Origin: Blastocatellia bacterium
GTDB lineage: Bacteria > Acidobacteriota > Blastocatellia > UBA7656
DNA: 64,000 nt
Assembly (NCBI GenBank): GCA_963765495.1
Contig: CAVXWP010000009.1
Span: 608,001 to 672,000 of the forward strand
Direction of reading: 5' to 3'
Shown piece by piece: positions 40,076 to 64,000 of the stretch (position 1 is the stretch's first letter; every line of letters begins with the position of its first letter). The notes below the pieces were generated by a model that saw nothing but the letters and a program-made list of their open reading frames with translations, ran no database searches and had not been told where the DNA came from. Both the position numbers and the translations under genes were made by a program.

Positions 40076-40148
40076 GGGCGCTTAGCTCAGTCGGTAGAGC
40101 ACTGTCTTCACACGGCAGGGGTCACTGGTTCGAGTCCAGTAGCGCCCA
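40076..40148 (+). tRNA. tRNA-Val (CAC); 3' CCA not encoded
   Basis: Acceptor GGGCGCT/AGCGCCC, D arm GCTC/GAGC, anticodon stem CTGTC-TTCACAC-GGCAG, T arm ACTGG-TTCGAGT-CCAGT. Confidence 0.97.
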
Positions 40149-40155
40149 CTTTTAG
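40107..40155 (+). repeat. attL core (49-bp direct repeat)
   Basis: Identical to 63925-63973. Confidence 0.95.
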
Positions 40156-40169
40156 AATCAATTAATTAC

Positions 40170-40191
40170 AGCCACCTGCGAGGTGGCTTTT
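40170..40191 (+). terminator. Terminator after the tRNA
   Basis: AGCCACCT-GCG-AGGTGGCT-TTT. Confidence 0.75.
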
Positions 40192-40769: not shown

Positions 40770-40997
40770 TCAAGTCTTTCTGCTCGTCGCACTTGCATCA
40801 ATCCACATCAAGAGCATGCCCGGTTGTACCTGTAGGGTCTGACATAACCGCTCAAGCGTATCTAATGCGGCCATCTTTGCTGTGCCGTTCCAGATGCGGT
40901 ATATGCTCGCGTAGGGTATGCCTGATCTGTCAGCCAAGTCTTTAGCGTTCCTGATGCCCTTCGCCTCTGCCACTTCCTGAACATTCCATTTCATCAT
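40770..40997 (-). CDS. Cro/CI-type (XRE) HTH repressor
   Basis: DLADRSGIPYASIYRI...LDTLERLCQTLQVQPGMLL; GGAGG RBS. Confidence 0.9.
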   Translation of the reverse strand: MMKWNVQEVAEAKGIRNAKDLADRSGIPYASIYRIWNGTAKMAALDTLERLCQTLQVQPGMLLMWIDASATSRKT

Positions 40998-41871: not shown

Positions 41872-42154
41872 ATGAATCTGATTTGTTTTTCTGCAATCAA
41901 GGCAATCGGGCCGGGTGATGTATCAATTTGCATCACCCGGTTTACCGCGCCAAGGAGGCAAGGAAATTGCGCCCGCTCACAAAGATTGCCATGTTGCTTA
42001 TCATTCTAACTCATGGCGACTTCCGCGCATTCGGCCGCATTGGCGGTCAGATCACGCGACAACAAAGCGATGGGCTTTCAATCTTCGCAATGTCCGAACC
42101 CATCCCGCTCACGAAATAAACCGGGCATTCTACACAGCCCATTATTCACACTGA
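41872..42154 (+). pseudogene. Frameshifted HNH-like protein
   Basis: Joining frames gives INLHHPVYR..QGGKEIAPAHKDCHVAYHS, an HNH-type pattern. Confidence 0.5.
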
Positions 42155-42201
42155 CCAAGCCGGGGCAGGCAATGAGCTTGCCCCACATTGGAGGAAAGAC
42201 C

Positions 42202-42561
42202 ATGAATATTCATCAGATACCAGCAGCAATTGAGAGCAAACAACAGGAGTTGATAACCGACAGTGAAGACCTCGCAATTGTGCGAGAGCAGATCAAAGAT
42301 GCAGAGCTTGAGGCAATCTGCGAAGCGTCCGACGCTCGCAACGAAGACGGAAAGCAAATGTACACAAACGATAAACAACGCGAGCGCGCCGCCCGGCAGA
42401 GCATGAGAGCAGTCGCGCAGTACCAGAGGGACCGTGAGACAGCCCGAATACTTGAGCGCCGGGTTGCCTTGCTCACAGCAGAGATCGAGCGAATGCGCCG
42501 AGATTATCGCATCGCATTGATTGACTACGAACGCGTGCAATTAGGCCAGCGCGCAGCATGA
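42202..42561 (+). CDS. Coiled-coil phage-like hypothetical protein
   Basis: GGAGG RBS before MNIHQ; followed by a terminator. Confidence 0.7.
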   Translation: MNIHQIPAAIESKQQELITDSEDLAIVREQIKDAELEAICEASDARNEDGKQMYTNDKQRERAARQSMRAVAQYQRDRETARILERRVALLTAEIERMRRDYRIALIDYERVQLGQRAA

Positions 42562-42568
42562 GGTATAA

Positions 42569-42605
42569 CGGGCCGGTTTCAACAAGTAGACCGGCCCGCC
42601 CTTTT
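42569..42605 (+). terminator. Intrinsic terminator ending the early operon
   Basis: CGGGCCGGT...ACCGGCCCG-CCCTTTT. Confidence 0.7.
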
Positions 42606-42640: not shown

Positions 42641-42669
42641 GTGACATAGACCGCCAAAAGTAGTATGCT
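42641..42669 (+). promoter_or_regulatory. Possible sigma-70-type promoter for the TPR gene
   Basis: GTGACA-17 nt-TATGCT. Confidence 0.4.
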
Positions 42670-42727
42670 CACCAAGCCATCCCCAGGTGGTTTCACTTGC
42701 ATTCGGTTTGCGAGTGAAAGTCTCAAG

Positions 42728-42973
42728 CTACAGATGGAGTCTGATGATTTCCGATAGTGTGCCGATCACAATCCAGACACTTCTCAAGGATGAAACTCCA
42801 CTATCTTCATCCTTATTGATTGGCTGACGACTTGGAGATGTCCCTGGCAGATTATGACCATCATCAGCTACGGCCACAGATTGAAAACTTACGCCTTGAT
42901 TGCTCATAGGCGTAGAAAGGAGGGGAACCGACAACGTGCAGCACAGAGCCGCTATCAAGAATTTTGCTTTCAT
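42728..42973 (-). CDS. 81-aa secreted/membrane peptide (signal peptide - DDGHNLPG - hydrophobic tail)
   Basis: GAGGT RBS; MKAKFLIAALCCTLSVPLL...SVAVA|DDGHNLPGTSPS...LRSVWIVIGTLSEIIRLHL. Confidence 0.6.
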   Translation of the reverse strand: MKAKFLIAALCCTLSVPLLSTPMSNQGVSFQSVAVADDGHNLPGTSPSRQPINKDEDSGVSSLRSVWIVIGTLSEIIRLHL

Positions 42974-43844
42974 ACTTACCTCTGTTAGTAGATTTTCGAG
43001 CTTATCTCTGCAAGACAGAGAGAAGCTGTTGCGTGGGTTGGTTTCTCTCGGAGACACAGCCTATGCACTCCGGCAATGGGACAGGCTGGAAGATGTTGGG
43101 AAAGCACTTGTCAGCCTGCCCCTGCCGGATTCAAAAAAGGCAATTGGATATTACTTCCAAGGACTCGCGGCCAATCCTAAAGCCAAAGGAGATAACCGCA
43201 AAGCCTGCTCGCTATTTGCTCGTGTTATAGACCAAGCCCCGCTTTACTTCCGAGCTAAAGCATTGGTTTCTATCGGCTGCCAAAATATTGCTGCGGGCAA
43301 CTGGCAGCAAGGCTATAACTACAATATCCAAGCTGCGTCATTAGCCACTCAATCGGAAGACTGGCTGACAGTAATCAATGCTCATAGCGCCATAGCAATC
43401 TTGCATTCGTTTGAAGGCGATCATCGCCGCGCCCTTGATAAATTGGAATCGCTATGGCCAATGGTGCGAGCGATCCACCGCGCCAATCCTGTTGCATACC
43501 TGGACTATCTCAACTCATTAGCCATTGAACTCAGCGAAGTAGGCCACACCGATCAGGCCCGCAACGCCATAAACATCGCTCTCAGTTCGTCTTTAGCCGT
43601 TCTCTATCCAGAATGGCACGAAACCGCCCGCGAGATTGAGCAAATCGCATCAGCGCCGGTTATTGTCATAGTTCCTGATCTTCAGCCGGAAACTCAATCT
43701 AAGCCGGAAAAAGTTCTTATCATCCTGCCTGTAGATACTTCGTCTCAGGCATCACCAAAGCTACTGCCCATAGCCTTTGCGATAGTCAGCATATCTGTGC
43801 TGATCTGTAAGAGTCGCCCTGCTCGCGCTCCACCTCTATTTTGA
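42936..43844 (+). CDS. TPR-like helical repeat protein ending in RAPP
   Basis: AAGGAGGGG RBS before GTG; TPR-like helices; C-terminus SRPARAPPLF. Confidence 0.75.
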   Translation: MQHRAAIKNFAFILTSVSRFSSLSLQDREKLLRGLVSLGDTAYALRQWDRLEDVGKALVSLPLPDSKKAIGYYFQGLAANPKAKGDNRKACSLFARVIDQAPLYFRAKALVSIGCQNIAAGNWQQGYNYNIQAASLATQSEDWLTVINAHSAIAILHSFEGDHRRALDKLESLWPMVRAIHRANPVAYLDYLNSLAIELSEVGHTDQARNAINIALSSSLAVLYPEWHETAREIEQIASAPVIVIVPDLQPETQSKPEKVLIILPVDTSSQASPKLLPIAFAIVSISVLICKSRPARAPPLF

Positions 43845-44008: not shown

Positions 44009-44467
44009 ATGAGTATAGTGGATAAACTTACTTTTGAAGAAACTGACTTGAGCAAATCTCTGTTGGAAACTAAATGTATAGCTGCGCTGGTTGCTCAAAT
44101 TATCGGGGATGAACCCGCAGCTAGTATTCTTACTGCGCCGGGTGATGAGCTTGCGGATTTGCTAATGACAATTCGCAGAGGTATCACTGGCTCACCCGAA
44201 GAAATCCAACGAGCAGTCACAACAATAGATGAGGCTATCGAGTTATGCTTTCTGCATTCTGAGGCATACACGGCCGCATTTGAGCTATTCAAGCTTGAGA
44301 AATCAGGCGAGTTAGTAAGCGACACAACGGCCAGAAGCATTATAAACGAGGCCATAGAACAAGTCGAAATCCACAGCGAAGTATCAGCGAGCAAGAGCGA
44401 ACAGAGCAAGATTGAATCTTTTGAACAGCACGAAGATCACAAAGAAAGGCAAAAAGGGCAAAATTGA
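44009..44467 (+). CDS. Acidic hypothetical protein
   Basis: AAGGAGG RBS, 152 aa, followed by a hairpin. Confidence 0.7.
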   Translation: MSIVDKLTFEETDLSKSLLETKCIAALVAQIIGDEPAASILTAPGDELADLLMTIRRGITGSPEEIQRAVTTIDEAIELCFLHSEAYTAAFELFKLEKSGELVSDTTARSIINEAIEQVEIHSEVSASKSEQSKIESFEQHEDHKERQKGQN

Positions 44468-49448: not shown

Positions 49449-51198
49449 ATGCCAAAGACTGATATTTCGGTTTCTGAGCTTGTGGAAATGATTTCCAGAG
49501 GGGAACTTCGTCTCCCCGAAATGCAACGGCGCTATGTCTGGACCTCGACTCGTGTGCGCGATCTGCTTGACTCGCTCTATCGCGCCTACCCTTCCGGCAG
49601 CATACTCGTTTGGGAGACGGATCAAGCACAGCCCAGTAGAAATCTGGCAGTGCAACAAGCTTTTAGCCCGTTCGCCGGTCACAAACTCTTGCTGGATGGT
49701 CAACAGCGCCTCACTTCCCTTTCCGCTGTATTAAGAGGCGAACCTGTTATTGTGAAGAATAGAAAGCGGCCTATTGATATAGCTTTCAATCTGGATCATC
49801 CCGATGGACCGCCCGCTGAAATCCTTGAGATTGAGGACGATTCTACTTCTATGAACGGTGATGACGAAACCATAATGGAAGGTGAAGACGATGAGTACAC
49901 GCCTTCGATTCAAGAACGCCTCAGACAGCGTACCTTTGTCGTAGCCAGCCGCGCACTGTTGTCCTCGCCATCCTGGGTTTGGTTTCGGATATTTTCAAGG
50001 GAGAGCGAGCGACTGGCAACTGGTAAAGGGTCTGGTCTCTTCGCCTGATGATCCTGGTTATGAAGTTTATACCCGCCGTCTTCAAGCAGTAAGAGCCATT
50101 CGCAATTATATGTATGTCATGCAAATCCTTCCGCGAGACTATTCCTATGAAGAGGTCACGGAAATATTTGTGCGCGTCAACTCTCTGGGCATCAAGCTTC
50201 GCGGTTCGGACTTGGCTCTGGCTCTCGTCACCGCAAAATGGCCTAATTCGTTAAAGCTATTCGAGGAGTTCATTGATGAGTGTGAGGAAAGCTGGTTTAC
50301 GCTCGACCTCGGCCTGATCGTTCGCACTCTGGTTGTTTTCGCAACTCAGCAGAGCCGCTTCCGCACCGTAAGCTCATTGTCAAAGGAAGTGCTGGAAACC
50401 GCATGGGAGAAAACAAAAGATGGATTGCGATTCTCGATCAATTACTTAAAGGCAAACGCGGGCATCGAAGATGAAACGCTTCTTTCTTCGCCGTTCCTGA
50501 TGATTCCTATCGCCGTCCTGAGCGTGTTACGCGATGAGCGGTTATCGAGTGAAGATGAGCGCAATCTGTTAAGGTGGCTATACATCGCTAATGCTCGCGC
50601 TCATTATTCCAGTTCGAGCGAAACAAAACTGGATGCGGATCTGAATCTTCTCTTTCGCGGAAACGGGCCTGAAAGCTTGATGGGGCCTTTGGAGAGCCAG
50701 TTTGCCCGATTGATTATCGAGCCATCCGATTTTACGGGCCGTGGAGCGCGTAGCGCCCTATTCTCATTAGCCTATCTGGCGCTCAAGCACGCGGGCGCAA
50801 AGGATTGGTTTTCGGGGCTTGGTCTATCGCTTACTCATCAGGGCAGATACCATTTCATTCAGTTCCATCATATCTTCCCAAAATCGCTGCTGCAAAAAGC
50901 CGGATATGAAAAGGCTGAGATTAACGAGATTGCCGACATGGCTTTCATCACCGGTCGAACGAATCGCCGTATATCCAACAAAGCCCCGATTGATTACTTC
51001 AAAGATATAATTGCTCAACGTGGCCAGAAAGCATTGATCCAACAGCAAATCCCTATGGATGAAAAGTTATGGAAAATAGAGAATTATCGGGAATTTCTTG
51101 AAGAACGCAGAAAGCTTCTGGCCTCAATAATCAATGAGTTTATAAACCGGGCCTATGAGACAGGGGCCGTAGCGATGATTCAAACTGACAAAGACTGA
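49449..51198 (+). pseudogene. DUF262 (GmrS-like) + HNH-like C-terminal domain, GmrSD-type restriction protein, frameshifted
   Basis: LPEMQRRYVW, LLDGQQRLT, IFVRVNS.G, HHIFPK...N; split between 49449-50048 and the 50110 frame. Confidence 0.8.
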
Positions 51199-51245: not shown

Positions 51246-54200
51246 ATGCCGAGAAAGAAATCATCGAAGACTTCGGAAACTTCCGTAATAGATTATCGCC
51301 ACGAGGCAAAACGAAAGACAACCCGCCCGCAGGAATAGCTGCACGAGGCATGGTGCGCGAATCTCCAAAGGTCGTCTATGAGTATAATCCTCATCTGCCG
51401 CCTGTCTTGCGCTCGGACCCTACAGCAAGCTCAGATGTATTGCCCGAACTATTGAACATAGCGCGCACTCGCGCACTGACGGCCGAAGAGGCCGAGACGC
51501 TGGCCAATGCCCTACGTAACCACGAGCCGTGGCTTGAATGGGCAGGCAAGCGCGAGAAGAAAAGTTTTGAAGTTGATCCGGTTGCGCTCCACATCCACGA
51601 GCGCATCTCGACACAGGCAATCCTCAAGGTGGCAAAGCGCGAGGATGTTCAGCGGTCGCTGTTTGCCGACCCAGAGCAGGATTACCGCGAGGCCGTTCAG
51701 TTCTATCAGCACGATGTAGACTGGACAAACCGGATGATACTCGGAGATTCGCTGCAAGTAATGGCGAGCCTTGCGCGAAGAGAAGACCTCGCGGGCAAGG
51801 TGCAGATGATCTACATCGACCCGCCGTATGGGATCAAGTTCGCGTCAAACTTTCAGCCCGAAATAGGGAAGCGCGATGTTAAGGACAAAGAGAGCGACCT
51901 GACGCGCGAGCCTGAAACGGTGAAGGCATATCGAGATACTTGGACGCTCGGCGTGCATTCATATCTGGCGTATTTGCGTGATCGGTTTATTTTTGGCGAA
52001 AGAATTGCTCGCGGATACAGGTAGCATCTTCGTGCAGATTGGAGATGAGAATCTTCATCACGTCAGAGAGTTGCTGGATGAGATATTCGAAGCGCAAAAT
52101 TTTTGCAGTGTAATAACACTTGTTAAAACCGCTGGACAAAGTGCCGAGCTTGTTCCTAATGTATGTGATTATCTGCTCTGGTATGCAAAATCAAAAGAGG
52201 ATATAACATTCAATCAAACCTTTCGAGAAAAGATAGCTACCCCAGAAGAAGCTGGTCATTACAGTTGGGTGTTGTCGCCAAATGGAGAAATGCGAGGGCT
52301 TCGAAAAGAGGAACGTGAGGGAAAATCAGTTTTGCCAGAAGGCGCGAAGCTATACGCCCCTACCTCGCTTACCTCACAGGGTGGCAGTTCCGAAGGTCCA
52401 TTTCCGTTTGATTATGCAGGGCAGACATATACAATTCCTGTACGTGATCACTGGAAGACAAACTTACAAGGCATGGCGAGGCTGGCTCAAGCAGACAGAA
52501 TTCATATCGCTGCAAACAGTGTCCGATTTGTTCGATTCCTGGATGATTTTCCTGCGATACCACATACAAATTTTTGGGATGATACCGCTACCGGCAATTT
52601 TACAGAAACAAAAGTTTATGTCGTTCAAACAGCTACGAAAATCATCGAACGCTGCCTTCTAATGTCAACAGACCCAGGCGACCTTGTGCTTGATCCGACC
52701 TGCGGAAGTGGCACGACAGCTTTTGTTGCAGAACACTGGGGTAGACGATGGATCACGATTGATACCAGCCGCGTAGCTCTCGCTCTGGCTCGTCAAAGAT
52801 TGATGACCGCAACTTTTCCCTTCTACACGGTTAAAGATAGTAATGAGCAAACAGATGATACAGCCAATCCCGCCAAAGGCTTTGTCTATAAAACTGTCCC
52901 GCATATCACGCTCAAAAGCATTGCCCAGAACGTCGCCCTTGATTCCATTTTCGCAAAACATCAACCTCTGCTCGATGCGAAGCTCAATCATCTCAACCAC
53001 GCGCTGAAATCTGTATCATCAGAATTGCGTCAAAAGTTGCTGACAAAACTTAAAGAGAAAGAGAAACGCGACGGCAAGCGGTCTGTCACCGACGCCGACC
53101 GCAGACGTTGGATTTTGCCTAAAGGCGAGTGGATGGAGTGGGAAGTTCCATTCGATACGGATGAGGATTAGCCCGATCAACTCAAGACGGCTCTCGAAGA
53201 GTATCGCGCTGTCTGGCGCTCAAAGATGGATGAAGTTAATGATTGCATCGCCGCAAGCGCCGATCAGGAAGAACTCGTTGACCAACCCGAAATCGAGCGC
53301 AAGGTTGTGCGCGTCTCCGGCCCGTTCACAATGGAAGCCGTTATGCCCGCCGAAGAATCGCTCGAATGGGAATCGCCCATTGGCGGTCAACCCGACGAGC
53401 TTGAAACCTTTAATCAACAGGCCGAGGCCGAAGATGATCCCATCAATGCCGAAGCCTACCTCGACAAGATGCTCAGATTGCTCCGCGCCGATGGGGTCCG
53501 TTTTCCTAATAACAAAGTCGCCGAGTTTACTCGACTGGAAGCGATCAGCGGCGGCGAGTATCTTCACGCCGAAGGCGAATGGGAATCCGAAGACGGGCAG
53601 GCGCGAGCCGTCGCCGTATCCTTTGGCCCGCAATTCGGACCCGTGACCGCCTTTCAGGTTGAGAACGCATTGCGTATGGCCTACCGTAGAGGATTCGATG
53701 AACTGGTCTTTGCGGGGTTTAGTTTCGACGCCTCGGCTCAGGCTATAATTCAAGATGATACAAATCCGAATGTGCGATCTCATCTGGCTCACATTCGCCC
53801 CGATGTGAACATGGGCGATCTGCTGAAAGAGACTCCAAATAGCCAGATATTTACGGTGTTCGGCAGCCCGCGCACAAGTATTGACCAGACGGATGAAGGG
53901 CTATTCGTAATCGAGATGGAAGGCGTGGACATCTATAACCCCGTAGACAATACCCTCCTCCCCACGAACGCCGATAAAGTAGCCGCATGGTTTTTGGACG
54001 CCGATTATGATGGGCGGACGTTCTGCATCACTCAGGCATTCTTTCCAGACAAGAGCGCGTGGAAGAAACTGGAACGAGCCTTAAAGGGTGTGATTGACGA
54101 AGATCATTTCGATGTTTTCAGCGGCACTACATCCCTGCCCTTTCCGGCAGGCAAGCATAAACGAGCGGCGGTAAAAGTGATTGACCCGCGAGGCAACGAG

Positions 54201-58584: not shown

Positions 58585-59004
58585 CTAACATCTTTTTTCA
58601 TCTCCCTCTTGATTCTTTGGATTGTCGTGTTGTCGTGACATTGCAAATTCAAGTGCTTGATTCGCGGCGCGGCTACAGGGAGTGCATTGGTAAGCGTCAC
58701 CGAAGTTCAATGGGTCGCCGCAACTCAGGCAGCATTCCTTCTGCGGCTCCACTGCTTCCCGCGCTACTAGAAATGGGATTGGTCCAACATCCGGTATCTG
58801 TGGCAGCATGGCTTTTACCCTCCAAGCTATATCAGTATCAGTAATAGCAATGAGCGCGATGACCTGAGACTTATGCTCTACCAGAGCTTCGCGTAATTCA
58901 GGTGTAACGGCTCCCCTTGGAGCATCAATCCGCAAGCGGTTGCCACTGGTTTCGATGAATATCCCCCGCTCGCGCAGTTCGGTTAACAACTCAACTGCGG
59001 TCAT
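58585..59004 (-). CDS. TubC-N-terminal-docking-like domain protein with C-terminal Zn finger
   Basis: LLTEL.ERGI.I...G.RLRI.AP.G..TPEL...L.EHK; CLSC...CTPC; 4-nt overlap with the primase gene. Confidence 0.7.
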   Translation of the reverse strand: MTAVELLTELRERGIFIETSGNRLRIDAPRGAVTPELREALVEHKSQVIALIAITDTDIAWRVKAMLPQIPDVGPIPFLVAREAVEPQKECCLSCGDPLNFGDAYQCTPCSRAANQALEFAMSRQHDNPKNQEGDEKRC

Positions 59005-61367
59005 ATTTCGAGCACCTCCCGCTCTACTTCCTCTTTTTGAGTCGCCACACTCGCCACAGACTTTGTTTTCAAAGAATTATCGCCATTTCCAGTCGCCACA
59101 GAATAGGCATCTTGTGGCGACTCAAATTCATTGTAAGTTGTTGATTTCAGGACTTGTGGCGAGTGTGGCGACTCGATCATCAGGTATCTGGCAAAGACAT
59201 CCTCAAAATCATTTCGCAAGTACCCTCGCTGTGTTTGGTCCCGCTCGCGCCATTTCGTAGGTTCGACTCCAAAAGGTTTAAGAAGGCGAGCTAATCCAAC
59301 TTTGCTTAAAGCCTTCCCGCTCTTATACTCTGCCCAAGGCCGTGATTCCATCTCGATGAGAGATTGAATTATTTCGTCTGATGTCAGCCGCTCCCGATCT
59401 TCAGCAAAGATTACTTTGAGGTCACCAAGCAACAATGTTCTGGCTGATTCCGAATCAGGCTTCTCACCGGCCATCGTTCGGGCGATAATGCGCGCTTCTC
59501 GCGGCCAGTCGCCACCAGCAGTATCGGCAATGGCAAACAATGGTCGCCAGTTGTCGCGTGCGCGGTCGTTAGTGATTTCAGAAGGGATATCAGGATCGGC
59601 CGCCCGAAGTTGTTTCTTCATTTCATCAACCCATCGAGCAGAGCGACGACGTAAGTGCTCAAACTCTCCCAGACGATCAAACCTTAGCCGCTCGATATTA
59701 TCGTTTGCGCGCTTGCGTTGTAAGCGAATGATAATGGCTCGATCTTCAAGTGTGCCGGGCAAGGCTCCTATTAAGGCTATCGCTTTCGGTGACCATGTAG
59801 TGAATCGCCGAGGTTCGTAATCTTCCCCTGTTGTACGAATGATGTAGCTGGTGGCTTTCCGATGTCCGCTATTGAGAATGCCTCTCAACTCCTCATTATC
59901 CGTTAAGAATGAATCCGCCTCATCAATCAGCAGGGTGGGTTGATATTTCTCTACGGTTCTAAATAGGGCGCTTGGAGTTATGTTTGCGACTGCGAGCGGA
60001 CGCGGGGCAAGCGCGTATAGCAGAGTCAAAAGCGTGGTCTTGCCGCATCTCTTCTCTGGACTGGTTATTGCGAGCAATGGAGAAATGTCGAATAGATCGA
60101 AAGCGTAGGTATAGACAATCCATAGAGCGATTGCCTTGAAAGTATGTTTGGAGGCCGAAAGGAAGCGGTTTACAACAGCAGTGATTTCGTCAAGCATGAT
60201 TGCGCCATCAACCGGCTCAGGCCACAGGGCAGGATCGCGCAAATCAAGCCCTTTTGATTCTTCCTCATCGCTCTCAAGTTTCGGCATTGCAACATCAATC
60301 AATCGAGCAGGACTTGAGAAGCCGCGCTCTTTGAGAATTTTTATAGCCTCCTCTCGCGCAATTCCTCGCGCAAGTTCATCAAGCGGTTTTACGGCATCAG
60401 CAAAGTCTCTGAATGCCTTCTCAATATCGGCAATCGTCGCGCCAACTTTGAGATTGCGAAGCGAAGCCAGGGCATCGTCGCTTAGATGTTTGCCGGGTTG
60501 AGAATGACCATGCTTGCCATTCGGTTGCTCAGGCAGTCCAAACGAATGAAGCAATGCTGCATGAAAGCACCCTTTCTGGCATCTGACTGCGCCTGTGGCC
60601 GGATTGAACATGATGCCCGCATCGCTTTTGGGAACATGGCAGCGCGCACGGCAGTGATAGAAGCCGTCACCATTTTGCTTCGCAGTCGGATCATACATGA
60701 TGCGCCGCCTGAGTTCAGCATTAAGCTCATCCCACGTCGAATAATTTGAATTGGTATCAGTATCTTTGCTCATCTGTTCAACCAATCGCGATGATTCTTG
60801 GGCAGTCTCGATAATTTTGCGCCAGTTCAGCGTCTTGCCGTCAAATAGGTGATACTCATAAGGCGCATCGGGTAAAGCCTTCGCTGGCATATAAAACATT
60901 CGAGATTCATCTTTTGCCTGCGGATCAATCTTGCCGCCTGAGACTTTGGCAGCCCATTGCCAAAGCCGCGAAAATAGCGAAGATGGGACAGGTTCAGATA
61001 AAGGGATGATGATGCGAAAACGCTCTTCCACTGTTGGATTTGAAATAACGACACGCCTATGCGAATGAGTCGTATAAACCCCGAAGCAAAAACCCAGATC
61101 AAGCCAGGGTTGTAGATCCTCATCAAGCGCGGCGTGATGGTCATAATCAAGCACCAGCATAGAAATCTCGGTGACATTTGCCTTTTTCCGCTCAGGTGGT
61201 TTGAAGGTCGCGGGTGAGAATAGCGGACCATCCTTTTCGGCGCGCACAACTGGACAAGCAAGATACCTGCATATAGCAGCCCAATCGTGATGAACGATCT
61301 GCGGGGATTTGTCATGCTTGCTCTTGAATAATGAAATTGCGTAGCTCAAGCGCCCTCCCATTCTCAA
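59001..61367 (-). CDS. Primase-like / DUF3631 replication protein
   Basis: N-terminal LVLDYD / YTTHSH / RFRIIIPL primase-like motifs; Walker A PEKRCGKT, LLIDEAD, DNWRPL.AIA. Confidence 0.8.
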   Translation of the reverse strand: MRMGGRLSYAISLFKSKHDKSPQIVHHDWAAICRYLACPVVRAEKDGPLFSPATFKPPERKKANVTEISMLVLDYDHHAALDEDLQPWLDLGFCFGVYTTHSHRRVVISNPTVEERFRIIIPLSEPVPSSLFSRLWQWAAKVSGGKIDPQAKDESRMFYMPAKALPDAPYEYHLFDGKTLNWRKIIETAQESSRLVEQMSKDTDTNSNYSTWDELNAELRRRIMYDPTAKQNGDGFYHCRARCHVPKSDAGIMFNPATGAVRCQKGCFHAALLHSFGLPEQPNGKHGHSQPGKHLSDDALASLRNLKVGATIADIEKAFRDFADAVKPLDELARGIAREEAIKILKERGFSSPARLIDVAMPKLESDEEESKGLDLRDPALWPEPVDGAIMLDEITAVVNRFLSASKHTFKAIALWIVYTYAFDLFDISPLLAITSPEKRCGKTTLLTLLYALAPRPLAVANITPSALFRTVEKYQPTLLIDEADSFLTDNEELRGILNSGHRKATSYIIRTTGEDYEPRRFTTWSPKAIALIGALPGTLEDRAIIIRLQRKRANDNIERLRFDRLGEFEHLRRRSARWVDEMKKQLRAADPDIPSEITNDRARDNWRPLFAIADTAGGDWPREARIIARTMAGEKPDSESARTLLLGDLKVIFAEDRERLTSDEIIQSLIEMESRPWAEYKSGKALSKVGLARLLKPFGVEPTKWRERDQTQRGYLRNDFEDVFARYLMIESPHSPQVLKSTTYNEFESPQDAYSVATGNGDNSLKTKSVASVATQKEEVEREVLEI
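59039..59174. promoter_or_regulatory. Candidate replication origin inside the 3' end of the primase gene
   Basis: Perfect 20-bp IR GAGTCGCCACACTCGCCACA; nested TCGCCACA iterons; IHF consensus at 59134-59146. Confidence 0.6.
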
Positions 61368-62524: not shown

Positions 62525-63720
62525 TCAGCGGATTATTTCCTTTGGTTTTTGTGTTTCCTCTTTTGAATTGAACTCATCGAGTACCGCAGCAGCCCTCTTT
62601 GCAGTCTCTACATTAGCATTCACATAACGATAGGTCGTATTAGCCTGAGTATGCCCGAGAACTCGCCCTACCTCAGACAGAGGGACATGGCCAGATACAA
62701 GCCTTGTGGCGTGCGTGTGGCGCAGGTCGTGAAATCTCAGATCGGGAAGCCCTGCAACTATTCTAGCCTTGCTGAATGCTTTTTTGACGTTTGCTACCCC
62801 AAACACAAAACCATCAGGATTGAGGGGGGAGCTTTCCCACAACGCCTGTAGCTCTTGGGCCAGTCGTGAGGTAATTGCAACTTGGCGCTGCCTCATGGTC
62901 TTGGTATTGAATGCCTGTATGTTGACAAGCCCGTTCTCAAAATCAATATCTGACCATTTGAGCTTGAAAATTTCGCCTCGGCGCATCCCAGTATCCAAAG
63001 CCATGATGACGATGGGCCTTAAATGTGCCTTCGCTCCTGTGCATACAGCCAGCAGTTTTTCTTCTTCATCACGAGTCAATATCCGCTCCCGATGCCTTTC
63101 ATCGCCCGGATTGATGAGAGAGTTACCCATCACAAACGGGTTCTTGAGAATCCAGCCGTTTTGCTACGGCAACATTGAAGACTCGGCGAAGCAGGCTCAA
63201 CTCTTTATGAACGGTTCCGATGGATCTTTGTCGTTCTGTTTGATTTCCTGGCTTATCCGTTCCGCGTGTATTTTTCCCAAATACAACAGGAGTTTTAAGC
63301 CTGATGGATTTGAAGCGTTCCAAATCGCCATGCGTGATGGATTTTATTTTCTCCTTCGCAAAATAGTCTGTGAGGATGTTCAGGCGCAGTTGAAGTTCAT
63401 AGCGACTCCTATAGCCCGCAACTTTCCTGCCGTCCACATATTCAGGTTCTACAAGGTAGGTTCGCTGGTAGTAGTCGGCAAGCTGGGCGAATGTCATATT
63501 GGATGCGTCAATCGCCTTCTCTCCCTGTCCTTCGATCTCCCCAAGCATTTTCTTGGCAAGCTCACGCGCCGCTGTCTTCGTATTATCTTCGGGCTTCTGT
63601 AGCCATTGGCGCCGCTTGCCTTGTTTGTCTATAGGTTATGCAAGCAAACCATCGCTTGATCTTTTTGCCGTTTCTGACTTTCCATTTGTAGATCGCCGCA
63701 CCTGTTTTGGGCCTTGCCAT
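62525..63720 (-). pseudogene. int: Tyrosine recombinase/integrase with two frameshifts
   Basis: TGMRRGE, FHDLRH, LGH, TYRY catalytic motifs; AGGAGG RBS before MARPK; frame breaks near 63630 and 63160. Confidence 0.88.
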
Positions 63721-63924
63721 AGCATACCTCCTGCATAAAAGTGGGCTTGCGAACCATTGAAGTTTGACAGATTTGGTCAAACAAATGGTCAAACATTGAA
63801 GCCCGACATCAGCAGACAATGAATTGACATCACTAGACAATCATACTTGTAAACGCTCGCAAATAAAAGATTTTCTATACACGAGTAGGCGTTGCTAGAC
63901 ATCGAAACACAAGGTATTCCTGCA

Positions 63925-63973
63925 TTCACACGGCAGGGGTCACTGGTTCGAGTCCAGTAGCGCCCACTTTTAG
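63925..63973 (+). repeat. attR core (duplicated 3' part of tRNA-Val)
   Basis: Identical to 40107-40155; lacks the 5' half of the tRNA. Confidence 0.95.
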
Positions 63974-64000
63974 GATCAACAAATTACAGCCGCCCTTAGA

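Follow-up and report, generated by a model that had tools for sequence, protein, structure and literature searches.

When a small gene with a secretion signal faces and overlaps a gene for a tetratricopeptide repeat (TPR) protein, do the two form a peptide communication pair? The question is raised by a locus in a 64,000-nt stretch of DNA from a Blastocatellia bacterium (GenBank assembly GCA_963765495.1, contig CAVXWP010000009.1, positions 608,001 to 672,000 of the forward strand), which we call the window and whose first letter is position 1 in what follows. A preliminary description, made from the sequence alone, had proposed that the small protein is exported, processed and then sensed by the TPR protein, in the manner of the Rap-Phr and AimR-AimP pairs. 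Here we show that the window pair is a diverged copy of a lineage-specific, multi-copy two-gene module, which joins an exported Cys-rich peptide to an all-TPR protein. Our best explanation of the module adds face-to-face antisense coupling of the two genes and an output through a gene downstream. Taken as a whole we give it a probability of about 0.5; our confidence in what the genes are stands well above that figure, and our confidence in the mechanism below it.

A two-gene module in one family of Blastocatellia

The peptide open reading frame (ORF; 81 aa, 42728..42973, minus strand) runs from an ATG at 42973 to a stop at 42728-42730, and the TPR ORF (302 aa, 42936..43844, plus strand) from a GTG at 42936 to a stop at 43842-43844; entry P0001 of the protein collection uses the same GTG start. 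The two coding regions overlap 5' to 5' by 38 nt (42936..42973, both strands). Each Shine-Dalgarno (SD) sequence lies inside the other gene: the peptide ORF has its GAGG (42982-42979, minus strand) within the TPR ORF, 5 nt ahead of the ATG, while the TPR ORF has its AGGAGG (42918-42923, plus strand) within the peptide ORF, 12 nt ahead of the GTG. In all these respects the preliminary description was borne out.

The pair belongs to a larger set of loci. TPR relatives were found in 23 of the 24 other genomes from the taxonomic family of the window genome (this family within Blastocatellia is called f1, and the window genome G000) and in 0 of 16 genomes from seven other families of the class. A genome has as many as 24 TPR copies (G000 has five), and module copies number 5-25 per genome where present. 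A peptide profile gave no match in 248 Acidobacteriota genomes outside f1. We compared 27 loci holding 28 TPR copies (20 retrieved regions, L003, L008 and the five G000 copies), all oriented on the TPR gene. Only two ORF clusters recurred among them, the TPR gene and the small ORF that faces it on the opposite strand. Read by eye, this small ORF was intact beside 23 of the 28 copies, degenerate beside three (the window copy, copy 1 of L027 and the copy at 145 kb on contig C9 of G000) and missing beside two (L025 and L026).

A profile census gave the same picture. In the near-complete genome G015, a peptide match lay directly upstream, on the opposite strand, for 22 of 24 TPR matches, and only 3 of the 25 peptide matches had no adjacent TPR match. 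In G000, peptide matches were recovered at three of the five TPR loci, the window copy being among the two that did not reach E ≤ 0.01. G009, a complete f1 genome, lacks both genes. The pairing in G015 and the joint loss in G009 support the two genes as a real, co-inherited unit. The preliminary description had made the survival of an antisense ORF among TPR homologues a test of its proposal, and on this point the family agrees with it.

Single copies record other events. At G000:C8:215622-216651 a frameshift has split the TPR gene into two frames beside an intact peptide gene, whilst at G000:C9:145635-146522 (C9b) the TPR gene is intact and the peptide ORF is truncated to 71 aa. L027 is a tandem duplication, with two modules 3.5 kb apart. 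Two distant module copies in G015 (G015:C2:888001-889020 and 1611858-1612877) have identical scores, which suggests a recent segmental duplication.

In its canonical form the peptide has four parts: a Sec-type signal, a Cys core (A-x-A-G-H-T...C-x-C-G-x3-C-x-C-D-P-G-E), a variable linker rich in Pro, Ser, Asp and Gly, and a C-terminal hydrophobic helix ending in R-x-R. The consensus of 124 peptides reads MrkRLllaa.ciL.LP..fS...(about 10)...PfatvA.AGHt..Gg.yC.CG.pgCICDPGE.P...(variable linker)...DlgsgaLllaLAlllwlRlRa, and in a short form of 79-88 aa the signal peptide runs straight into AGHT. Searched against 1.84 billion representatives, the profile returned 304 clusters (50% identity) at E ≤ 1e-3, with 172 at E ≤ 1e-10. 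The top 150 representatives were all 69-126 aa long and never fused to another domain; they carried the GH motif in 134 cases and CxC..CxC in 124, and four Cys residues followed the GH motif in 79 and six in 43. For the five closest pairs, all canonical, the ratio of nonsynonymous to synonymous substitution rates (dN/dS, Nei-Gojobori; dS 0.40-0.99) was 0.30-0.45 for the peptide and 0.20-0.27 for the TPR gene. These values are well below 1, and therefore both are real coding genes under purifying selection; the preliminary description had asked for such selection on the antisense ORF.

The peptide has few links to known proteins. An AlphaFold2 (AF2) model of a canonical member (predicted local distance difference test score, pLDDT, 71; predicted template modelling score, pTM, 0.28) defined only the N- and C-terminal helices, around a loop-rich middle. 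Pfam, NCBIfam, PADLOC and profile searches of the PDB gave no match to the family; the only signals, ROK-family matches on a short-type peptide (Pfam/NCBIfam, E 0.021 and 0.056), were far below cut-off. Its language-model neighbours in the Atlas were unnamed hypothetical proteins and weak PEP-CTERM/VPDSG-CTERM leads. Peptide genes are often missed by genome annotation: three of four peptide ORFs were absent by exact sequence from a collection of 15 billion proteins, the window ORF in both start-codon versions.

The C-terminal helix could mean that the peptide is an envelope protein whose helix and RxR end form an exosortase-type sorting signal, with the TPR gene linked to it only through shared regulatory DNA. 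A hydrophobic helix and a basic end do stand at the extreme C-terminus of most members (107 of the 150 representatives have a basic C-terminus), the language-model neighbours include small PEP-CTERM/VPDSG-CTERM proteins (0.84-0.85, leads only), and there is one exosortase-family match in the genome (G000:C8:232108-232584, 29.9 bits against a cut-off of 25.7). That match, however, is 15 kb from the nearest module and unlinked to the others. Moreover, no PEP-CTERM or other sorting-signal model in Pfam or NCBIfam matched the peptides, and a PF07589 search of the genome, run without a positive control, found nothing. We regard a sorting signal as improbable.

The window peptide is an outlying member of this family. 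It scored 17.5 bits against a family hidden Markov model (HMM) built without it, where the best of 1000 shuffles reached 9.3; this score, together with the conserved position and overlap phase, argues that it is not a chance ORF. The alignment covers residues 1-44 only, from the signal peptide through ..SVAVAddGHnlpG. The preliminary description had seen a hydrophobic segment at each end of the peptide and a G-x-x-x-P-G core between them. The N-terminal segment stood up (Kyte-Doolittle value, KD, 2.5 over 12 aa, family mean 2.61), with a putative cleavage site after VAVA. The C-terminal one is weak: its KD over 15 aa is 1.49, where the family averages 2.10 (sd 0.70) and 8% of 124 members have a segment as weak or weaker. 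The core was misread: what the family keeps is AGHT..CxCG..CxCDPGE, and the 'DDGHNLPG' of the window copy, which lacks these cysteines, is at the sequence level a remnant of the AGHT..G motif. Thus, the signal part and GH motif are retained and the Cys core is lost, with no such core found in any frame of the region. With the anchor weak as well, the window peptide is probably decaying or repurposed; the TPR gene is intact.

A stricter version of this, which we take seriously whilst holding it to be short of an even chance, is that the 81-aa ORF has become a relic without function here, leaving only the TPR gene and the gene after it at work and the overlap inherited but unused. The missing Cys core, the alignment that stops at residue 44 and a C-terminal helix weaker than in 92% of the family all fit a relic, as does the failure of the family HMM to match the window peptide at E ≤ 0.01 in the genome search. 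Only four of the 150 representatives lack Cys after the GH motif, and decayed copies are known elsewhere in the genome (the truncated peptide at G000:C9:145 kb and the frameshifted TPR gene at G000:C8:216 kb). On the other side, the frame has stayed open to its ..IIRLHL end, which matches the ..W.RLRA end of the family in position, and the ORF keeps an ATG with GAGG 5 nt upstream. In addition, no part of the N-terminal region is better kept among P0001-P0005 than the first 16 TPR residues, whose codons lie antisense to those of the signal peptide. P0002-P0005, from metagenomes, are the closest relatives found for the window TPR protein (56-42% identical); 53 f1 genomes held no match better than 39%, and a related-locus search in genome contigs returned three distant loci.

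The start-to-start overlap

Overlap of two genes head to head at their start codons is, to our knowledge, the rarest class of bacterial gene overlap. To count overlaps in the module, we took as the TPR start the ATG aligned with the conserved N-terminus (MQTAA.., MxxQAN.. or MSKQ..) and as the peptide start the one with a strong SD. The overlap at 22 loci was 29 nt (four loci), 32 nt (four), 35 nt (eleven), 38 nt (two) or 50 nt (one), in every case 2 mod 3 and so in the same phase. Because the copies are related, this is one inherited and retained arrangement, rather than 22 independent events. The peptide SD was AGGAGG or GGAGG at 5-8 nt in most loci, and the TPR SD was weaker (GGAAG or GGGAG). 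A conserved Cys in the signal peptide invited a lipoprotein reading, which we rejected: the Cys-Ile/Met pair is the reverse complement of the ATG-CA of the TPR gene. This accounts for a Cys whose conservation would otherwise be puzzling, and it speaks for a genuine TPR start.

We then compared the proportion of synonymous differences (pS) along both genes, pooled over 11 non-independent paralog pairs. In the TPR gene pS was 0.33 over codons 2-12 and 0.41 over codons 13-36, against 0.69 over both codons 37-100 and codons 101-250. In the peptide gene it was 0.41 over codons 2-12 and 0.55-0.64 further in. The first ~100 nt of the TPR gene are therefore constrained beyond the needs of its own protein. 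Part of this constraint may come from a minus-strand sequence, the extended -10 box TGnTA(G/T/A)AAT. In 9 of the 22 loci the distance from the end of the box to the peptide start is 54-57 nt, and in two further, short-form loci it is 27-30 nt. The box is the reverse complement of conserved TPR codons for G-F-Y-Q; at L016 the protein has A-L-Y-Q where the box reads TATAAT.

On the other side of the pair, sigma-70-like sites past the peptide stop occurred in about 9 of the 22 loci, at varying distances and close to chance expectation. The window has such a site (GTGACA-17-TATGCT, 42641..42669, plus strand), which lies past the peptide gene on its 3' side and is directed towards the TPR gene; the preliminary description had it transcribing across the whole peptide gene. 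It does not rise above chance, as it is one of four promoter-like sites in 5 kb against 5.2 ± 2.6 in shuffles. Slightly further upstream, a G+C-rich hairpin (GGGCCGGT..ACCGGCCC, 42566-42600) directly follows the stop of a plus-strand ORF (42013-42561) and would set that upstream operon apart from the TPR gene; its T-run is short, and for this reason the terminator scan did not list it.

From the positions of these start signals, we infer face-to-face antisense coupling of expression as the best-supported mechanism for the module. The peptide SD, its 5' leader and, in half of the loci, the extended -10 lie inside the first ~35 TPR codons, and the TPR SD lies inside signal-peptide codons. Start signals embedded in this way would entail face-to-face transcription with mutually antisense 5' ends, so that expression of each gene would interfere with that of the other. 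That the mutual antisense overlap is conserved throughout the family fits a regulatory role.

In type I toxin-antitoxin systems the 5' end of a gene for a small hydrophobic protein lies under an antisense transcript, and the predicted layout of the module resembles this. The small membrane peptide might accordingly be toxic and restrained by the antisense TPR transcript or by the TPR protein, as in a toxin-antitoxin or bacteriocin-immunity pair, and the many scattered copies per genome would suit such a role. However, a cleavable-looking signal followed by a conserved Cys-rich ectodomain is unlike a type I toxin, PADLOC gave no match, and the modules are not generally on mobile elements (the 104 flanking ORFs included one transposase and no integrase). 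We consider a toxin-antitoxin or immunity role very unlikely.

The TPR protein and the genes that follow it

Modelled by AF2 with 30 sequences (pLDDT 84, pTM 0.74), the window TPR protein is an all-alpha solenoid over residues 25-240 with a disordered tail, its N-terminal 24 residues being modelled at low confidence. The best Foldseek matches of this model in the PDB were the peptide-binding TPR domains of LGN/Pins (E 1e-4, TMq 0.47-0.55). Pfam TPR_12 scored 27.6 bits, below its cut-off of 30.1, and 14 of 30 family members match this model. The fold and its matches nevertheless uphold the initial assignment as a TPR-like protein. At E ≤ 1e-3, Pfam gave only helical-repeat families among the 30 members, all of them TPR apart from HEAT_2 and DHR-2 in single members, and no helix-turn-helix (HTH) or enzyme domain was found. 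The N-terminus of the window protein has a best 12-aa KD of 1.44, with no signal seen. A search for longer homologues (883-2520 aa) returned one, an unrelated multi-TPR protein.

We compared the TPR protein with the known receptors by fold and by sequence profile. RapH (3q15_B) came at Foldseek rank 41 (E 3.9e-3, TMq 0.41), behind LGN, kinesin light chain and others. The best PDB matches by profile were consensus TPRs, Pins, kinesin light chain and LapB, with NprR (4gpk_A) at E 0.056, far behind the consensus TPRs. The protein is thus a generic TPR solenoid, no closer to Rap, NprR or AimR than to other TPR proteins. Its most conserved stretch, GDH..AL..LE.L.P.VR...P..Y.DYLNSLAVEL.E.GR..EA...S.I.LASP.A.AYPEW.ET..E, and its most conserved surface, residues 160-235, are common to all paralogs, and the N-terminal repeats vary.

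These results bear on the proposal from which we started, that the pair is RRNPP- or arbitrium-like, the peptide being exported, cut, re-imported and bound in the TPR groove to change gene expression. Its generic side held. PMC10075063 sets out a five-point RRNPP signature (a propeptide of 10-100 aa, a Sec signal by SignalP, a receptor of 250-500 aa, TPRs, and direct neighbourhood of the two genes), and the pair shows both sizes, the TPRs and the neighbourhood, together with a putative Sec-type signal. Like Rap-Phr, the module exists as many diverging paralogous pairs per genome; its best fold matches bind peptides, a separate XRE-HTH gene abuts the TPR gene in some loci, and the linker is the variable part of the peptide. 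The specific side did not hold. What the peptide conserves is a core of four or six Cys residues together with a membrane helix at the C-terminus, and not a short C-terminal signal. Among the 30 TPR members Pfam matched no HTH or other effector domain, and no Rap-type N-terminal bundle was found; unrelated TPR proteins are at least as close as RapH and NprR, and the best-conserved surface, common to all paralogs, is not specific to any one of them. By our own reasoning, a diderm Acidobacterium would also have to re-import the peptide across two membranes, and in the literature searched we found no RRNPP work on Gram-negatives. On balance, we judge signalling of the RRNPP kind by the module unlikely.

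A different clue to function is the end of the TPR protein. In 12 of 25 TPR proteins, the window's included, the chain ends in [RH]APP 4-14 residues before the stop, with a tail consensus of ..(I/L)L(E/D)R(L/M)..S(I/V)..[RH]APP. In the window the codons for R-A-P-P (43824..43835, plus strand; residues 297-300 of 302) lie two codons before the stop and form an arrest-like motif; other copies of this type include L011, L013, L028, L023, L022, L027, L003, G000:C1 and G000:C9b. According to PMC10987492, R/Q/H-A/G-P-P motifs near a C-terminus stall ribosomes, HAPP variants exist, and RAPP-type arrest peptides are not restricted to sec and yidC operons.

The gene that follows the TPR gene depends on the tail type. 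A co-oriented ORF starts within 13-165 nt downstream in 10 of the 11 RAPP-type loci examined, and these ORFs fall into at least three families: a 150-aa protein, an acidic type (window and L003) and a putative Crp-like type recognized by eye. The acidic protein of the window (P0013, 152 aa, 44009..44467, plus strand) is co-oriented, begins 164 nt after the TPR stop and is a candidate output gene. The non-RAPP TPR proteins have a longer helical tail. At five of five loci with a convergent XRE-HTH gene (147-164 aa), which are of the non-RAPP type, this gene overlaps the TPR stop tail-to-tail by 4 nt (L012, 4185-4625, minus strand; L021; L017; L020; and the G000:C16 copy), a second fixed overlap of the module. 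The XRE-HTH gene has a weak capH / control-protein match in PADLOC.

The remainder of our best explanation can be stated in these terms. The peptide would be a membrane-tethered, extracytoplasmic element with its Cys-rich part outside, and in the cytoplasm the TPR protein would serve it as partner or adaptor and pass the output to the downstream gene. In RAPP-type copies, among them the window's, this output is perhaps coupled by ribosome stalling at the TPR C-terminus. A predicted complex of TPR residues 1-270 with the peptide, both from L013, gave no answer (score 0.00, mark 0.32, controls not folded) and counts neither for nor against binding.

A bolder reading, which we think improbable, makes the module a new kind of envelope or export sensor that works through a RAPP-stalled TPR chain and peptide export. 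The 72-111 tail residues before RAPP would let the TPR domain emerge fully from the ribosome, and on the stalled ribosome it would engage the peptide, either as pre-peptide or by its cytoplasmic end. As the peptide was exported or inserted into the membrane, it would pull on the nascent TPR chain, free the stall and set translation of the downstream regulator, while the phase-locked antisense overlap would fix the proportion of peptide to TPR protein. In a weaker form of this reading, the module would be a peptide-signalling family of diderms that carries its own antisense toggle.

Several points weigh against the coupling and partnership that we favour. The start codons behind the overlap counts were picked by hand, and the extended -10 is absent, by the criteria used, from 11 of the 22 loci, including the window and all RAPP-type copies. 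Protein constraint on G-F-Y-Q could explain part of the conservation of the box where it does occur, and no consistent promoter for the TPR gene was found at the 22 loci. Antisense transcription and peptide-TPR contact are both predictions from the arrangement of the genes. Mutual antisense repression would be an odd design if both proteins must act together, and the peptide would expose only 3-4 residues to the cytoplasm. For the window copy there is also the short alignment of its peptide to the family, and two scans of metagenome contigs for DNA of the P0002-P0005 loci found none.

Setting of the window copy and relation to known systems

The window pair sits on a 23.8-kb integrated element, as first proposed. 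A tRNA-Val gene (40076..40149, plus strand) stands at its left end, where a 75-nt att-like direct repeat copies the 3' part of the tRNA (40102..40176, plus strand). The right copy of the repeat (63920..63994) is 92% identical to the left, and an integrase gene lies just inside it (62525..63133, minus strand). An XRE-type HTH protein of the island (HTH_26, 51.4 bits; 40770..40997, minus strand) is encoded 1.7 kb upstream of the pair. The element further carries genes for a DUF3631 protein (59001..61367, minus strand), a TubC_N-like small protein (58585..59004, minus strand) and a DNA methylase (51978..53171), a split GmrSD (49449..51198) and an AT-rich B12-radical SAM cluster.

We rejected an island location as a general rule for the module. 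The 104 ORFs that flank the 22 non-window loci included a single transposase and no integrase, and no integrase was found within 25 kb of the other four G000 copies. Among these flanking ORFs Pfam found LptF/G, ATP synthase a, tRNA-synt_2b (class II), dehydrogenases and the like, so that most copies sit among ordinary or housekeeping genes. Placement beside the island's repressor, to which the preliminary description had given weight as part of the switch, is thus not a general trait of the system.

The window copy is the least informative member of the family, and the interest rests with the family itself. A fixed-phase overlap held over at least 304 peptide clusters, with up to 25 copies per genome, suggests that the overlap itself serves as a regulatory device. 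The module also brings together three subjects of current interest: unannotated small exported proteins, peptide-paired TPR proteins outside Firmicutes, and RAPP motifs that precede regulator-like genes but are carried by a large folded protein. Should there prove to be signalling between peptide and TPR protein, it would be the first of its kind in Acidobacteria, a phylum that is dominant in soil but poorly studied. Without such signalling, the pair would still offer a clean example in nature of how divergent genes can be coupled in antisense. No description of the module was found in the main texts of the literature searched. It combines known kinds of element (peptide and TPR pairs, excludons and RAPP arrest) in a way that we did not find described.

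Of these known systems, the RRNPP pairs (Rap-Phr, NprR-NprX, PlcR-PapR, AimR-AimP and Rgg-SHP) likewise place a Sec-type peptide gene next to a gene for a TPR protein of 250-500 aa, and resemble the module in its many diverging paralogous pairs per genome and in the presence of one copy on an integrated element. The module differs in its Acidobacterium host and its head-to-head overlap of 29-38 nt. Its peptide has a Cys-rich core and a C-terminal membrane helix, the latter absent from Phr and AimP propeptides, and its TPR protein is without an HTH and without a specific sequence or fold link to Rap or NprR.

The PEP-CTERM/VPDSG-CTERM proteins are built like the peptide, with a short passenger between the signal sequence and a hydrophobic helix that closes the chain in basic residues, but the module peptide has no PEP-type motif or HMM match and always carries one and the same passenger. 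With the RAPP arrest peptides (ApdA, ApdP and the RQH family) the module shares an R/H-A-P-P near the stop of the TPR gene and a co-oriented gene next to it. Known arrest peptides are short, secreted products of upstream ORFs with an N-terminal signal or transmembrane segment, whereas here the motif is on a folded TPR protein of 290-365 aa that has neither; the genes downstream are not sec or yidC, and stalling is predicted from the motif.

Excludons and face-to-face promoter switches have been described in Listeria and in phage 186. There, as would be the case in the module, divergent genes with mutually antisense 5' transcripts provide a means of reciprocal expression. The module differs in that the coding regions themselves overlap at their start codons, in a fixed phase that has been kept across hundreds of paralogs.

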